Shown here: piece after piece, positions 51,255 through 63,322 of the stretch
Layout of the letters: each line of letters starts with the position of its first letter
Numbering within the stretch: position 1 is the stretch's first letter
Assembly (NCBI GenBank): GCA_951406725.2
Contig: OX597827.1
Location: forward strand, 73,966,001-74,030,000
Direction: 5' to 3'
DNA: 64,000 nucleotides
Source: Octopus vulgaris
Lineage: Eukaryota
Position numbers: made by a program

Positions 51255-52817
51255 CAAAATGGGACAAGAACGCAAAACATCCAGACAGTCAGGTGATACA
51301 AAAAAGGAGAACAAAAAATTCATATAGACGATACAAAGAAAACAAGGATGGGTCATTCGGAGTTTTCTTTCGTCAGTCGAGTTCCAGATGATCTTTGCAA
51401 TTTCGGCTGGTTATACTCGATATTGCTCCAATCTGGCGAGCCCCAAGGAAAAATACTTATTTTCATATATCTATATGTATAAATAAATATATATATGTAT
51501 AAATATATATATATGTGTGTGTGTGTGTGTTGTGTATGTGTGTGTTTGTGTGTATGTACCAAATCCACTAACAAGGCTTTGGTCAGCCCGACGCTATAAT
51601 AGAAGACATATGCACAACGTGACATGCAGTGGGATTGAAACCGGATCCATATAGTTGGAAAGCAAGCTTCTTACCAAACTATCATTCATTAATAACTCTA
51701 TCACCACTGAACACCATTTGTGATATAGGGAGACGACGTATGCAAAAGATCCTGAAGGAAGTCCTTTGTCAGCTCGTGATTCTCTATAATTATCTATATT
51801 TGATATTTCATCGAATTTTATTTTACGCGAATACTTTCATCTCATTCACTGTGGTTACATTTCATTGATCCACGTTGAAATACAATGAGGAATCAAGTAT
51901 ATACTCATCTCTATCTAGTGTCTGTAATGCTAAAAGAAATAACAATATCTAGCATATTAAGTCATCTATACTATGTCATAAAACTCTTATAATAGCAATT
52001 TATGGCTAACATTGTTTTTATTATTTCAGAATGTCTCAGCGGTAGATTTGGTCGCAATTGCGCAAAGTCCTGTCATTGTTCCCTAACATGTAACCACATA
52101 AATGGATCGTGTCCAGGTGTGTGTGATGCAGGATACACCGGAGACAACTGCCAAGAAGGTTATTTCCAACACCTTTTATTCCAACATTTTAACATTCTCT
52201 ACATTTCAATTAGTGTTTCTTAGCGTAAATCAACTTTCTTATTTATCATCAAAGACTACTTCAACGTTAACTCATAAGTTATGTTTTAAGATAAGATAAT
52301 AAAAAAGCGTATCATTGATGTCTCACATATATTTGTAGAAGAGAACTCTTACAGCCATAACTTTTATTGTGTGGAGCTAATAATATCTAATCTATTGTGT
52401 TTTGTATTAATATTTCCAGAATGTGAAGTTGGTAGATTTGGTAAGAATTGTGGAAGGACATGTCATTGTATCGACGACGAAAACTGCGACAGGATAACTG
52501 GAAAATGCCCAAAAGAATGTTCTGCTGGATATAGAGGCTACTATTGTCAAAAAAGTGTGATATGAAACTATAAAATATTTCATAAAATTATGTTTAAATC
52601 TCTGCATCTGATTCTTACTTTATCTTTCCTTTCATTTAATTAACGTGGTAATGGAGACGCAGACTAACCAGTTTATTTTCCAAACTTACATTCATTAAAT
52701 ACTTCGTGAATTCATATCGAGATATATTGAGATATATGGGTTCTATGCGCTTGTATGTATGCTGTATATATGTATGGATATGTATTTGTACATATACATG
52801 TATATGTATTTATGCAT

Positions 52818-52856
<39 letters not shown>

Positions 52857-58600: not shown

Positions 58601-61600
58601 TCTATGGGTATGGACTCGTACAAAGTTTGAATTGTTTCCAAAGGAAGTTTTGTCCATTCTTCAGCTAAAACAATCTCCATTTCTTGTAGTGATGATATTG
58701 ATATGATGTAGGGTATCCGCTCTTTACATGTTTCAATAAAATGCACAATAAATGTTCAATAATATTGAGATCTGGGGACTGTGGTAACCCGATGAATTTT
58801 TCAACATCACTAGAATGTTTTTCTTGCCATTCAAAAACAACTTTAGCTGTGTGAATTGGTGCATTATAATCCTGAAAGATTGCGTTTCCCTCAGGAAACT
58901 TTTCTGCAACCATATAAGGAATTTGATCAGATAAAATGGTTAAATAGCCTTTACTATTAATTCTGCCACATATTCCTCCATGTTTAACAGTTTGAAGATA
59001 GCAGTCTGGGTCAAATGGTTCTTGCTCCTTTTGGCTCTCTCCAGACGTATACTCAACCGGTTGTCGGAAGTAAGGGAAAGGGTGCTCTAAGGACCAATTC
59101 TGTAGTTTTTTACTCCACTCTAAACGCTTTGCGACGTTTGATTTTGAAAGTAGTCGTTTTCTGATTGTAGCCCTCACGTGAAATCCGGCTTTGTGCAGCT
59201 CCCTGCAAACAGTTTTTTGTGGAAACAGGGTTCCCAATATGGTCATTGAACTCTGCAGTAATTTTGGGAACTGTACTTTTGTGATCCATTCTAACAATTC
59301 GCGTAGGAGTCCCTATCTGAAAGTTTTGGTTCTCTTCCGGAGTTTTATTTCGAAGAGGAGGTTTTTCCCACTTTCTCAAAGGGTGCATTACTTTCAGAAT
59401 AGTATTTCTTGATAAACCAAACATCTCGGCTGTTTTTGTTATGCTAGCACCTGTCATATGAGCACCAACAATACGACCTCTTTGAAAGTCCAATAAATCT
59501 GTTATATTAATGAATTTTGATTACCTTTTTCTAATGGTAACTGAAAAGAAACAGTAATTTTAGCAAGACATATTATGCGACAATAATAAATCAGAAAATA
59601 TATAAAAATAATTTTTTGATGGTTTTTATAGATATTTCAAAATTTTGATGCTATAATAGTAGGCGTTTCCATTATTTTGTCCAACCTCTGTATATATTCA
59701 TCATAGATATAAGGTAGATGAGAATACTTGAAGAAGACATACAGAAATCGATTGAACTAAAGGATAGGCTATAATATCCATGTTAAAAACGTAATTTCCA
59801 TGAGATTAGGTATCATTAACAATCATCATCACCAGTGTACATCCGTTCTGTATGTTGTTAGCCGTTGTGCGATTCTAGGTGTCCCAACCCGGATCCATAT
59901 GGTTGGGAAGCAAGCTTCTTACCAAACTTTCATTCATTGATAACTCTATCGCCATTAAACACAATTTCTGATATAGGGAGAGGACGTATGCAAAAGTTGC
60001 GGAAGGAAGTCGTTTGGCTGCTTGTGATTCTTTATAATTATCTATATTTGATATTTCATCGGATTTGATTTTACCCGAATACTTTCATCTTATTATCTAT
60101 AGTGACATTTCATTGATCCACGTTGAAATACAATGAAGAATCAAGTATATACACATTTCTATCTAGTGTATGTAATGCTAAAACAAATAACAATATCTAG
60201 CATATTAAGTCATCCATACTATATCATAAAACTCTTAAAATAGCAATTCATGGCTAATGTTTTTTTTTATCTCAGAATGTCACAATTGGTAAATTTGGTC
60301 CCAAATGCACAAAGTCCTGTCATTGTAACGCAACATGTAACCACATAAATGGATCGTGTTCAGGAGTGTGTGAAGCAGGATACACCGGATACAACTGCCA
60401 AGAAGGTTATTTCCAATACTTTTTATTCCAACATTTTAAAATTCTTTAGTGTTAAGTATTTAGTGTTTCTTAGCGTAAATCAACTTTCCTATTTATCATC
60501 AAAGACTACTTCAATGTTAACTCATAAGTTATGTTTTAAGATAAGATTATAAAAAAGCATGTCATTGATATCTCTCATATATTTGTAGATGAGAGCTCTT
60601 ACAGACATAACTTTTATTGTGTGGAGCTAATAATATCTAATCTATTGTGTTTTGTATTAATATTTCCAGAATGTGTAGGTGGTAGATTTGGTAGCAATTG
60701 TAGAGGGACATGTCATTGTATCGATGACGAAAACTGCAACAGAATAACTGGAGAATGCTCAGGTGGATGTTCTGATGGATATACAGGATCCTCTTGTCAA
60801 CAAAGTATGATATGAAACTATGATACATTTCTTAAAATTATGTTTAAATCTCTGCATCTGATTCTTACTTTATGTTTCCGTTTATTTCATGATGAGAACT
60901 ATACTGGTTTATAACCAATATATTTTCCAAACTTAGATTCATTAAATGCTTCGTGAATTCATATTGAGATATGTTGGATGCATGCGTTCCTATTTATGTT
61001 GTATATATGTATGGATGTATGTGTATGTATTATTACATATACATATATATGTATTTACGTATATATATTTATATGTGTGTGTGTAAATACATGTATTTAT
61101 ATATGTATATACACACATAATTATGTAACACACTAATATATATATATACGTGTGTGTGTGCGTATACATAAATACAGGGGTTGAACAAAATAATGGAAAC
61201 ATCTTGAAATTTTAAACAAATTATCTTAATATAGGGTAGGACCGCCTTTGGTAGTAATTACACCTTCAAGTCTATGGGGTATGGACTCGTACAAAGTTTG
61301 AATTGTTTCCAAAGGAGGTTTTGTCTATTCTTCAGCTAAAACAATCTCCATTTCTTGTAGCGATGATATTGATATGGTGTAGGGTATCGGCTCTTTACAT
61401 GCTTCAATAAAATGCACAATAAATGCTCAATAATATTGAGATCTTGGGACTGTGGTGACCCGATGAATTTTTCAACATCACTAGAATGTTTTTCCTGCCA
61501 TTCAGAAACAACTTTAGCTGTGTAAATTGGTGCATTATAATCCTGAAAGATTGCGTTTCCCTCAGGAAACTTTTCTGCAACCATATAAGGAATTTGATCA

Positions 61601-63322
61601 GATAAAATGGTTAAATAGCCTTTACTATTAATTCTGCCACATATTCCTCCATGTTTAACAGTTTGAAGAAAGCAGTCTGGGTCAAATGGTTCTTGCTCCT
61701 TTTGGCTCTCTCCAGACGTATACTCGACCGGTGGTCGGAAGTAAGGGAAAGGGTGCTCTAAGGACCAATTCTGTAGTTTTTTACTCCACTCTAAACGCTT
61801 TGCGATGTTTGATTTTGAAAGTAGTCGTTTTCTGATTGTAGCCCTCACGTGAAATCCGGCTTTGTGCAGCTCCCTGCAAAGAGTTTTTTGTGGAAACAGG
61901 GTTCCCAATATGGTCATTGAACTCTGCAGTAATTTTGGGAACTGTACTTTTGTGATCCATTCTAACAATTCGCGTAGGAGTCCCTATCTGAAAGTTTTGG
62001 TTCTCTTCCGGAGTTCTATTTCGAAGAGGAGGTTTTTCCCACTTTCTCAAAGGGTGCATTTCGGCTGTTTTTGTTATGCTAGCAACTGTCATATGAGCAC
62101 CAACAATTCGACCTCTTTGAAAGTCCAATAGAACTGTTATATTAATGAATTTTGATTACCTTTTTCTAATGGTAACTGAAAAGAAACAGCAATTTTAGCA
62201 AGACATATTATGCGACAATAATAAATCAGAAAATATATAAAAATAAGTTTTTGATGGTTTTTATAGATATTTCAAAATTTTGATGCTATAATAGTTGGCG
62301 TTTGCATTATTTTGTCCAACCCCTGTATATATACATCATAGATATAAGGTAGATGAGAAGACTTGAAGAAGACATACAGAAATCGATTGAACTAACGGGT
62401 AGGCTATAATATCCATGTTAAAAACTTCATTTCAATGAGACTAGGTTTCATCATCATCATCACCATTTGACATCCGTTCTGTATGTTGGTAGCCGGTGTG
62501 AGGTTCTTAGTGTCCCAATGAGTGCAGAGGACTGCGCCAAGCTACTGTGTCTGCTTTGGCAGGGTTTCTGTAGCTGGATGCTCTTATTAACATGAAACAC
62601 TTTACAGTGTGTACTGAGCGCTTTTGTGTGAAGCAGGATACACCGGATACAACTGCCAAGAAGGTTATTTCCAATACTTTTTATTCCAGCATATTAAAAT
62701 TCTCTACATTTGATTTAGTGTTTCTTAGCGTAAATCAACTTTCCTATTTATCATCAAAGACTAATTCAACGTTAACTCATGAGTTATGCTTTAAGATAAG
62801 ATAATAAAAAGTCGTGTCTTTGATATCTCACATATATTTGTAGATGAGAGCTCTTACAGCCATAACTTTTATTGTGCGGAGCTAATAATATCTAACCTAT
62901 TGCGTTTTGTATTAATATTTTCAGAATGTGAAGCTGGTAGATTTGGTAAGAATTGTGGAAGGACATGTCATTGTATCGATGACGAAAACTGCGACAGAAT
63001 AACTGGAGAATGCTCAGACGGATGTTTTGCTGGATATAGAGGCGCCTTTTGTCAACAAAGTGTGATATGAAACTATAAAATATTTCATAAAATTATGTTT
63101 AAATCTCTGCATCAGATTCTTATTTTATCTTTCCTTTCATTTAATTAACGTGGTAATGGAGACGCAGACTAACCAGTTTATTTTCCAAACTTACATTCAT
63201 TAAATACTTCGTGAATTCATATCGAGATATATTGAGATATATGGGTTCTATGCGCTTGTATGTATGCTATATATATGTATGGATATGTATTTATACATAT
63301 ACATGTATATGTATTTATGCAT

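Follow-up and report, generated by a model that had tools for sequence, protein, structure and literature searches.

A mosaic tandem array of EGF-like exon pairs in a lectin-EGF gene of Octopus vulgaris

The window, that is, the whole 64,000-nt stretch of Octopus vulgaris DNA analysed here, contains part of a gene encoding an F-type-lectin-like domain and a series of EGF-like modules, with all exons on the forward strand. Using the O. sinensis 'protein draper' (P0001) as a tblastn query for the upstream exons, we located an exon of the pre-EGF ectodomain of the same gene at 560..679 (P0001 residues 153–192, 72.5% identity), for which a Pfam search returned no family, and an EGF-like exon preceding the lectin domain at 11756..11920 (residues 195–249, 83.6%), whose match to Pfam EGF_STAB1-2, at 22.7 bits, lies below the cut-off of 27. 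The lectin-like domain (FTLD / F5_F8_type_C_2) is encoded by two exons, at 26631..26894, identified by Pfam and PDB matches, and at 46788..46970 (residues 337–397, 72%), and another EGF-like exon at 47757..47903 (residues 395–444, 80%) occupies the interval between the lectin domain and the array described below.

The two lectin exons were searched separately. The first scored 30.5 bits against F5_F8_type_C_2 (cut-off 27.8), matched FBP32 (3cqo, E 3.3e-8), Sm-hPAF (3e-7) and AAA (1k12, 1.6e-4) in the PDB, and aligned at 98% to the O. sinensis partial protein P0003, while the second matched FBP32 (3cqo, E 1.9e-4) over its LTLCEVEV end. The fucose-binding motif of such domains is given in PMC5712786 as H-X24-R-X-D-X4-(R/K). 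In our alignment the canonical His is missing, with Leu in its place (C-T-L-T, against C/V-T-H-T in FBP32 and Sm-hPAF); the first Arg (NR) is present, and the remainder of the motif, which spans the exon junction, was judged by eye. In paralogues this position is occupied by H, L, S or Q.

Downstream lies a tandem array with a unit of ~2.7–2.8 kb, made up of two phase-1 exons (A, 42 aa; B, 44 aa) and a spacer with a dead Tc1-like element. Its 5′ edge is a partial spacer (51638..52029, forward strand) homologous to the final 392 nt of each unit (blastn 89–90.6% to 54414–54803, 57194–57585 and 59886–60275), and no unit sequence was found by blastn upstream of 51200. Unit 1 (U1) comprises exon A1 (52030..52158), an A–B intron of 261 nt (52159..52419), exon B1 (52420..52554) and, on the reverse strand, a dead Tc1/mariner-like transposase remnant (53037..54045) in three ORF pieces of differing frames; A1 and B1 each encode an 8-Cys EGF module. 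The corresponding A exon, B exon and reverse-strand remnant lie at 54804..54932, 55196..55330 and 55817..56825 in U2, where B2 is 93% identical to O. vulgaris P0002, at 57586..57714, 57974..58108 and 58556..59520 in U3, and at 60276..60405, 60670..60804 and 61226..62155 in U4, where B4 is the B copy of greatest divergence. The end of U4 and the initial 90 nt of exon A5 are replaced by an unrelated, unstranded filler of 106 nt (62519..62624). Within the window U5 has an A5 remnant (62625..62663, forward strand), exon B5 (62925..63059), which is 3 nt from B2, and a Tc1-like remnant cut by the window end (63575..64000, reverse strand). The array runs on past position 64000.

AG/GT splice sites and the 1-1 phase are kept in all nine exon copies, of which eight are open. 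Two of the five A exons are defective, both missed in the preliminary description. Exon A4, at 130 nt, carries a 1-nt insertion, one extra T within a TT run, that brings a stop into the spliced frame after 4 codons and makes it a pseudo-exon unless the insertion is an assembly error, and exon A5 is cut down to its final 39 nt, without an acceptor.

As originally proposed, the exons encode EGF-like modules, and the cell-surface protein to which these belong also bears an F-type-lectin-like domain. The spacing C-x8-C-x3-C-x-C-x3/5-C-x6-C-x3-C-x8-C is shared by 9/9 copies and by 28 distinct modules from relatives. The B exons scanned (B1, B2 and B4) and the 11.7-kb exon scored 17.0–22.7 bits with Pfam EGF_STAB1-2, short of its cut-off of 27, and no Pfam family was found for A1 or the 47.7-kb exon. 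An AF2 model of exon B2 alone (mean pLDDT 80.0, pTM 0.50) gave no Foldseek match in the PDB at E <= 0.001; the top matches, the best at E 0.18, were all EGF-type (laminin LE, SCARF1, DLL4, netrin).

The Octopus family of this gene combines an F-type-lectin domain with alternating 42/44-aa EGF modules, 3–15 per relative, and annotations give spliced proteins for paralogues that contain these module types. Among the 16 relatives listed from the lectin-exon search, seven carry a tyrosine phosphatase domain (PF00102) and have a hydrophobic segment behind their EGF array. In many family members the ectodomain is followed by a transmembrane segment and a tyrosine-phosphatase domain. Judging from these relatives, the present gene, which the window leaves inside its EGF array, may also encode a receptor-type PTP. 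No module identical to those of the array was found in the annotated proteins of the collection searched (78–2000 aa), the best match being 84–93%.

The starting observation, that the exons diversify almost only by amino-acid replacement while the adjacent Tc1 DNA stays nearly identical, was partly confirmed. The pairwise counts on which it rested were reproduced: B1 and B2 differ by 10 nt in 8 codons, giving 8 amino-acid changes and no silent one; A1 and A2 by 9 nt in 7 codons, giving 7 amino-acid changes (8 replacement and 1 silent by Nei–Gojobori path count); A2 and A3 by replacements at 4 of 4; and B3 and B4 by 10 replacements and 2 silent changes, with all 8 Cys unchanged across the nine copies. 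Near-exclusive replacement does not extend to other pairs, however, since B2–B5 has 2 silent changes and 1 replacement, and in B2–B4 pS (0.151) exceeds pN (0.133). Across the nine exons together, we counted 40 replacement and 6 silent changes. Within A1–A3, all 10 variable nucleotides (12 replacement changes, 1 silent) fall in the first 55 of 129 nt, and the 74-nt 3′ tail is invariant (P ~3e-4 at intron density); the 4 changes seen in this tail occur in the frameshifted A4 alone. In exon B, multi-nucleotide differences cluster, for example in codons 30–32 and 40–41.

Divergence is not confined to exons. Between U1 and U2 the A–B intron differs at 21/260 positions (8.1%), equalling the exons (9/129 in A, 10/135 in B), whereas between U2 and U4 the intron differs at 4/263, yet exon B at 18/135. 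The Tc1 remnant, in turn, is nearly identical within groups of units (7/1009 differences for U1–U2, 24/929 for U3–U4) but not between them, where U1 and U3 differ at 107/948 positions (11.3%), more than the exons do. Nor does it lie directly downstream of exon B, as had been stated: ~480 nt of microsatellite-rich spacer intervene. The spacer differs at 8/408 positions between U1 and U2. In Pfam, the U1 remnant reached the cut-off with HTH_23 (25.3 bits, cut-off 24.6) and stayed below it with HTH_Tnp_Tc3_2 (23.4; 31.5) and DDE_3 (24.1; 28.6), and its transposase frame is interrupted, leaving at least 3 pieces. Among the 25 of 94 inverted-repeat pairs listed, all lie within the microsatellite spacer and none spans the element.

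Recombination or conversion between units, raised earlier as one of two explanations, could be demonstrated. Informative sites in the A–B intron support the partition abab (9/10), while those in the spacer (90/91) and the Tc1 remnant (88/88) support aabb and those in exon B are mixed (5 aabb, 2 abab), so that the partition type switches along the unit from abab to aabb. In a PHI-type test, 0/2000 permutations showed neighbour incompatibility as low as that observed, for four and for five units. The array is therefore a recombination or gene-conversion mosaic, its units having been assembled by unequal crossing-over or gene conversion, and segments of one unit consequently have different relatives. 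Exon B1 is itself chimeric, B2-like over residues 1–28 and resembling the 'PKE' modules of paralogues over residues 29–44. The spacer with its Tc1 remnant exists as two old types, each lately copied or homogenised (U1=U2=U5 and U3=U4), and the exon pair with its intron retains an older divergence of ~7–8%. In U1–U2, U3–U4 and U1–U5, the segment spared homogenisation is each time the exon pair and its intron, with the switch point ~65–80 nt 3′ of exon B. Recombination between repeat units probably explains most of the exon-versus-transposon contrast, which, because the A–B intron matches the exon divergence and the groups differ by 11% in their Tc1 remnant, is no evidence of selection.

Selection on the exons has to be judged from the substitutions themselves, and here the interpretation in the preliminary description stands in part, with diversifying selection on EGF surfaces as a candidate: replacements dominate, but maximum-likelihood omega, which like the count tests below assumes independent mutations on one tree and was obtained from 4–5 copies whose recombination violates this assumption, was not significantly above 1 for whole exon A (2.31; 2dlnL 1.35, LRT p 0.25) or B (1.40; 2dlnL 0.50, p 0.48). 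Silent changes (6/46) are fewer than the 0.236 expected under a neutral model (p 0.059), and more clearly fewer than the 0.289 expected when mutations hitting Cys or creating stops are disregarded (p 0.0097); a directly controlled Fisher test of replacement versus silent changes gave p 0.053, or 0.096 with A4 left out. Replacement density at non-Cys sites (40/164) exceeds that of changes in the adjacent intron ~2.2 times (29/258, p 6.5e-4) and is above the Tc1 remnant (119/912, p 4.5e-4) and all noncoding sequence (290/1956, p 0.0023), though not above the microsatellite-rich spacer, whose alignment is unreliable (109/407, p 0.6). Three-state sites make up 7 of 39 variable exon sites, six of the seven at codon positions 1–2, against 6/309 in noncoding sequence (p 1.4e-4). 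None of the 46 mutations hits a Cys (p ~0.001) or creates a stop (jointly, p ~1e-4), and the Cys scaffold is under constraint. The silent deficit, the raised replacement density, the three-state excess and the variable 5′ patch of exon A jointly fit positive selection on the loops better than plain relaxation, and the low silent divergence argues against the variant states being merely ancient. The data suggest selection favouring residue replacement in the EGF loops.

These data bear on how far selection has to be invoked beyond the mosaic. The array might serve a variable recognition receptor as its set of germline cassettes, in which diversifying selection acts on the N-terminal loop of module A and on the N-terminal loop and C5–C8 region of module B, removing conversion tracts that overwrite exon variants and thereby also shielding the short intron, while the spacer is free to homogenise. 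We regard this as a tentative reading, appreciably short of an even chance. A role in immunity, allorecognition or gamete recognition, as put forward in the preliminary description, is conjectural. The 40 to 6 excess of replacements, the silent deficit (significant or marginal depending on the null used), the raised replacement density and three-state count, the hypervariable 5′ patch of exon A beside its frozen 3′ tail and the repeated sparing of the exon pair with its intron all accord with it; set against them are the omega and Fisher results, the broken one-tree assumption, the resemblance of the clustered differences in exon B to imported tracts and the defects in two of the five A exons. 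Most variant residue states, moreover, are already found in paralogues (21/27 for A and 33/36 for B in the relatives' 14+14 distinct modules), for 6/21 O. sinensis modules a counterpart at <=1 residue difference exists in O. vulgaris, giving no sign of fast turnover there, and the exact modules occur in no annotated protein searched.

That last point would equally suit an array consisting wholly or largely of decaying, neutral pseudo-exons left out of the mature mRNA, as would the defects of A4 and A5, an omega not different from 1 and the uniform spread of variable sites over codon positions (14/16/9, p 0.37). We nevertheless think this improbable, given the absence of Cys hits and stops, the splice sites retained in every copy, the eight open exons, the 3′ tail frozen in A1–A3 and altered only in the frameshifted A4, and the paralogues annotated as spliced. 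More improbable still is an assembly artefact, in which collapse, mis-joining or consensus errors produced the near-identical spacers or the exon differences. Tandem repeats of 2.8 kb with microsatellites do assemble poorly, and both the single extra T in A4 and the odd filler at the U4/U5 junction could arise in this way, but the exon copies differ by substitutions that leave the Cys scaffold and reading frame intact, give coherent partitions common to several units and involve residue states that recur in independent Octopus assemblies.

On balance, we lean towards a mosaic tandem array in a lectin-EGF gene in which the exon-versus-Tc1 contrast is probably a by-product of mosaic history rather than of change in the exons alone. 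Purifying selection would hold the Cys scaffold together with the 3′ half of module A, while loop positions may change at close to neutral speed or a little above it, mostly among residue states also present in the modules of paralogous genes. As every exon is of phase 1-1, gain, loss or skipping of units, for example of the broken A4 and A5, preserves the frame, and the array may in this way adjust how many EGF modules, and of which kind, the receptor stalk contains.

Several known systems share features with this array. Like oyster bindin, as described in PMC5712786, it belongs to a mollusc gene that encodes an F-type lectin domain and in which cassette-like exons encode repeated modules, with recombination between repeats, here demonstrated, and replacement-biased variation. 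It differs from bindin as described there in that the repeated and variable modules are EGF-like rather than lectin domains, the single lectin domain is without the canonical His, omega is not significantly above 1 (p 0.25 and 0.48), and the relatives, instead of being acrosomal proteins, are membrane receptors that carry a phosphatase domain.

As in MEGF10, Draper and SCARF1, ~43-aa 8-Cys EGF-like modules are strung together in what is probably a type-I membrane protein, and NCBI names relatives of the octopus protein 'protein draper' or 'MEGF6/10'; laminin-type EGF modules and human SCARF1 head the fold matches, which are weak. None of the profile or fold matches is significant, however, the C6–C7 gap is 3 residues against 1 in the PDB EGF repeat compared, an EMI domain is absent from the part of the gene seen, and the cytoplasmic part of the relatives is a PTP domain rather than an engulfment-signalling tail. 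The PF00102 domain and the preceding hydrophobic segment of the seven relatives recall receptor-type PTPs. Classical RPTP ectodomains are built of Ig, FN3, MAM or carbonic-anhydrase-like domains, whereas the octopus ectodomain combines an F-type-lectin-like domain with EGF modules. Arthropod Dscam exon clusters exemplify concerted evolution and birth-and-death of tandem cassette exons, and the octopus array resembles them in its tandem duplicates of one domain type with symmetric phases, in the mosaic similarity between copies and in the presence of defective copies. Unlike Dscam cassettes, the octopus exons show no sign of mutually exclusive splicing, and their modules are apparently used in series, as the varying module number of the relatives suggests.

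The EGF-module exons form a tandem array extending from position 51638 to the window end, with units of 2774, 2782 and 2690 nt followed by a shortened fourth unit and a fifth cut by the window end. We defined the array by repeat search and MAFFT alignment, Tandem Repeats Finder (period limit 500) being blind to a 2.8-kb period; the window is without any N. Each unit (U1–U5) carries two exons, A (129 nt, a 42-aa module) and B (135 nt, a 44-aa module), separated by an A-B intron of 261 nt, and every exon copy shows an AG acceptor and a GT donor in phase 1-1. Past exon B lie a microsatellite-rich spacer of ~480 nt and then a minus-strand Tc1/mariner-like transposase remnant. 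In unit 1 this remnant (53037–54045) is split across at least three frames and matches the Pfam family HTH_23 at 25.3 bits, with HTH_Tnp_Tc3_2 (23.4 bits) and DDE_3 (24.1 bits) both under the cut-off; when we looked for the terminal inverted repeats of Tc1, all matches listed were microsatellite pairs. Exon positions are intact at three of five A copies and all five B copies. A4 (60276–60405) has one extra base that leads to a stop after four codons, and A5 is a 39-nt stump (62625–62663), two defects absent from the preliminary description.

The 5' edge of the array (51638, equivalent to 54414) and the end of unit-4 homology (62518, equivalent to 54415) fall at the same unit position, 54414/54415, an agreement that suggests either a fixed junction for duplication or a site prone to breakage; between 62518 and the A5 stump lie 106 nt of unrelated filler. 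A (TA) x 340 microsatellite (50574–51251) lies ~390 nt ahead of the array edge, and a (TATC) x 84 microsatellite occupies 45951–46287.

Diversifying selection had been proposed for these exons from the contrast between their replacement differences and the near-identical Tc1 DNA beside them. The underlying counts are exact: B1 and B2 differ at 10 nt in 8 codons, all 8 replacements; A1 and A2 at 9 nt in 7 codons, all 7 replacements; A2 and A3 by replacements in 4 of 4 cases; B3 and B4 by 10 replacements and 2 silent changes; and the eight Cys are unchanged in all copies. The contrast itself fails as evidence of selection. The proper control for exon divergence is the A-B intron inside the cassette, which is as diverged as the exons, and the Tc1 remnants of the two spacer types are themselves 11.3% apart (107/948 between U1 and U3), above exon divergence. 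Between U1 and U2, differences amount to 9/129 in exon A, 21/260 in the A-B intron, 10/135 in exon B and 2/70 in the next 70 nt, and further 3' to 8/408 in the spacer, 7/1009 in the Tc1 remnant (again as first counted) and 1/369 in the subsequent 369 nt. U3 and U4 give a similar shape (10/129, 20/259 and 12/135, then 8/351 and 24/929), and in U2 against U4 the A-B intron is near-identical (4/263) with exon B at 18/135.

Parsimony-informative sites, sorted by how they partition U1–U4, support abab at 9 of 10 positions in the A-B intron, aabb at 90 of 91 in the spacer and 88 of 88 in Tc1, and a mixture in exon B (5 aabb, 2 abab). Neighbour-site incompatibility was below that of all 2000 site-order permutations, with four units and with five alike. 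Since the partitions switch along the unit and neighbouring sites are this compatible, the array is a recombination or gene-conversion mosaic, and such a mosaic alone can produce diverged exons beside near-identical repeat DNA in a tandem array. The near-identity of the Tc1 copies comes from recent spacer copying or homogenisation within two groups, U1=U2=U5 and U3=U4. The array clearly exemplifies how phase-1 EGF exons evolve in concert and by birth and death.

Selection on the exons was then weighed with tests that all presume independent mutations on one tree, an assumption that recombination in the array breaks. Over all copies, exon A carries 2 silent and 18 replacement mutations and exon B 4 and 22; maximum-likelihood omega (GY+F1X4 codon models) was 2.31 for A and 1.40 for B, neither significantly different from omega fixed at 1 (2dlnL 1.35, p 0.25, and 0.50, p 0.48, respectively). 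With a mutation spectrum taken from noncoding DNA (transition fraction 0.54), the 6 silent mutations among 46 compare with an expected fraction of 0.236 (p 0.059 for <=6), or of 0.289 once Cys and stop hits are conditioned out (p 0.0097); without A4 the two p values are 0.075 and 0.016. Replacement density at non-Cys sites (40/164) compares with 6/52 at silent sites (Fisher p 0.053) and exceeds that of the A-B intron (29/258, p 6.5e-4), Tc1 (119/912, p 4.5e-4) and all noncoding DNA (290/1956, p 0.0023); mutations per site in the neutral yardstick run from 0.087 to 0.268 depending on the segment. Against the microsatellite-rich spacer (109/407) there is no significant difference (p 0.6); this segment (0.268 mutations per site) does not align reliably, and we therefore rejected it as a neutral standard.

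Variable sites at codon positions 1, 2 and 3 number 14, 16 and 9, which does not depart from uniformity (p 0.37). Three-state sites make up 7 of 39 variable exon sites versus 6 of 309 noncoding ones (p 1.4e-4), six of the seven lying at codon positions 1–2 and six of the seven being independent of A4. Among A1–A3, all 10 variable nucleotides fall within the first 55 nt, leaving the last 74 nt without variation (P ~3e-4 at intron density); the 4 changes in the 3' tail of A occur only in the frameshifted A4, which suggests that this frameshift is real rather than apparent. None of the 46 mutations hits a Cys (p ~0.001) and none creates a stop. The Cys scaffold is clearly under constraint, and in our reading the loop positions evolve at least neutrally; a replacement excess in the exons is suggested but not established.

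Where the variant residues come from was examined by comparison with distinct modules of relatives, 14 of A type and 14 of B type. The residue states at window-variable positions are also present in relatives in 21 of 27 cases for A and 33 of 36 for B, and no window-variable position is invariant in relatives. B1 is chimeric, matching B2 at 27 of its residues 1–28 and coming closest over residues 29–44 to paralogue 'PKE' modules (13/16). Both the residue sharing and the chimeric B1 fit variants being reshuffled from a pool of states that already existed. As another account we considered that the loop states merely go back to old module lineages that paralogues have in common; the low silent divergence in the same codons does not fit this well. 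Convergence or short conversion tracts are possible sources of these states. A counterpart in O. vulgaris differing by at most one residue exists for 6 of 21 O. sinensis modules; as a raw residue count, uncalibrated by neutral divergence, this gives no hint that those paralogues turn over rapidly.

Sequence searches and fold prediction were run on single exons. In protein searches, exon B2 matched an O. vulgaris 'receptor-type tyrosine-protein phosphatase T-like isoform X8' at 93% and the O. sinensis 'protein draper' (P0001) at 82%; exons B2 and B1 found no identical module in protein models (78–2000 aa). P0001 is colinear with the window at 560–679, 11756–11920, 26631–26894, 46788–46970 and 47757–47903, and then with the array. 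The relatives examined likewise alternate modules of 42 and 44 aa, with 3 to 15 modules in a protein; a hydrophobic segment and then the phosphatase domain come after them. A phosphatase end is a candidate part of the window gene, and any such part would fall outside the window. The relatives were named 'draper' and 'MEGF' automatically. The Cys spacing of the modules is that of EGF, and neither profile nor fold matches reach significance: Pfam gave no family for exon A and matched B1, B2 and B4 to EGF_STAB1-2 only below threshold, exon B2 had one weak match among PDB sequences (6u11, E 0.021), and the AF2 model of B2 alone (pLDDT 80.0) gave only non-significant EGF-type matches in a Foldseek search of the PDB, led by laminin LE modules and SCARF1 (best E 0.18).

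Residues 667–691 of P0001 align to the intron straight after the B exon (52555–52625 and equivalents; tblastn q622-690, 77–78%). This C-terminal tail being intron sequence, the P0001 model ends by read-through of a B-exon donor and is thus either truncated as a gene model or a short isoform that is secreted. A partial O. sinensis model, P0003, also terminates in donor read-through, at the lectin exon. Two O. vulgaris relatives, P0002 and P0006 (one 84.7-Mb contig), are identical across the lectin domain and first EGF; the next module, ahead of a common 'PKE' B module, is B-type in P0002 and A-type in P0006, which may reflect alternative use of cassettes in a paralogue or a difference in annotation.

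A search with the lectin exon found 16 Octopus proteins. Seven of these carry a PTP domain (PF00102); the top match, a partial O. sinensis protein at 98%, points to an Octopus source for the window, probably O. sinensis or a close relative. The lectin exons also matched solved F-type lectins (FBP32, E 3.3e-8 and 1.9e-4; AAA, E 1.6e-4). In the window lectin exon (26631–26894), Leu replaces the His of the fucose motif, given as H-X24-R-X-D-X4-(R/K) in PMC5712786. Across the family this position is H in P0001, P0002, P0004, P0005, P0006 and P0007, L in the window and P0003, S in P0008 and P0012, and Q in P0016, so that several paralogues may have a different sugar specificity or none.

Further mobile or putatively mobile elements lie in the window. 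The 20-kb intron splitting the lectin domain contains a nearly intact minus-strand non-LTR retrotransposon (28709–32410), with an endonuclease ORF (Exo_endo_phos_2, 43 bits), an RVT_1 ORF (108 bits), one stop between them and, upstream, a 271-aa ORF with no Pfam family. A minus-strand 304-aa ORF (23104–24015) is gag-like, with a CCHC zinc knuckle (21 bits). A plus-strand 495-aa open frame (3043–4527), without a Pfam match at E <= 0.001, shows by eye a YIDD-like reverse-transcriptase motif and a GIY-YIG-like stretch, which would point to a Penelope-like retroelement.

Phase-1 cassettes of this kind would allow module number to change by unequal crossing-over and broken copies to be skipped in splicing without a frameshift. 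Loop variants would be moved by conversion between units, and probably between paralogues too, with purifying selection presumably maintaining the Cys framework and, in module A, the 3' half. On sequence alone, the loop variation may serve recognition or be tolerated stalk variation. If diversifying selection truly acted on the loop codons, the EGF modules would be the varying part of a cephalopod family of surface receptors. Such a family would give a lead to recognition, whether immune, self/non-self, gamete or neuronal, and would couple it to tyrosine-phosphatase signalling, in animals that are not known to have variable receptors. In the literature available to us no cephalopod family of lectin-EGF-phosphatase type was described, and the architecture is apparently undescribed in Octopus.

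Taken to its full extent, the locus would belong to clustered Octopus receptor tyrosine phosphatases whose ectodomain joins an F-type-lectin-like head to a germline repertoire of EGF cassettes of alternating type. Selection would keep exon pairs of the array distinct at a small number of hypervariable loop codons, recombination would make the spacers uniform, and phase-1 exon skipping and unequal crossing-over would generate individual- or cell-specific variants. We regard this combination, with all its parts together, as quite unlikely. Were it true, it would amount to a Dscam/bindin-like diversification system on EGF modules, wired to phosphatase signalling; it differs from bindin in that the variable modules here are EGF-like, and its likeness in selection, polymorphism and splicing is putative.
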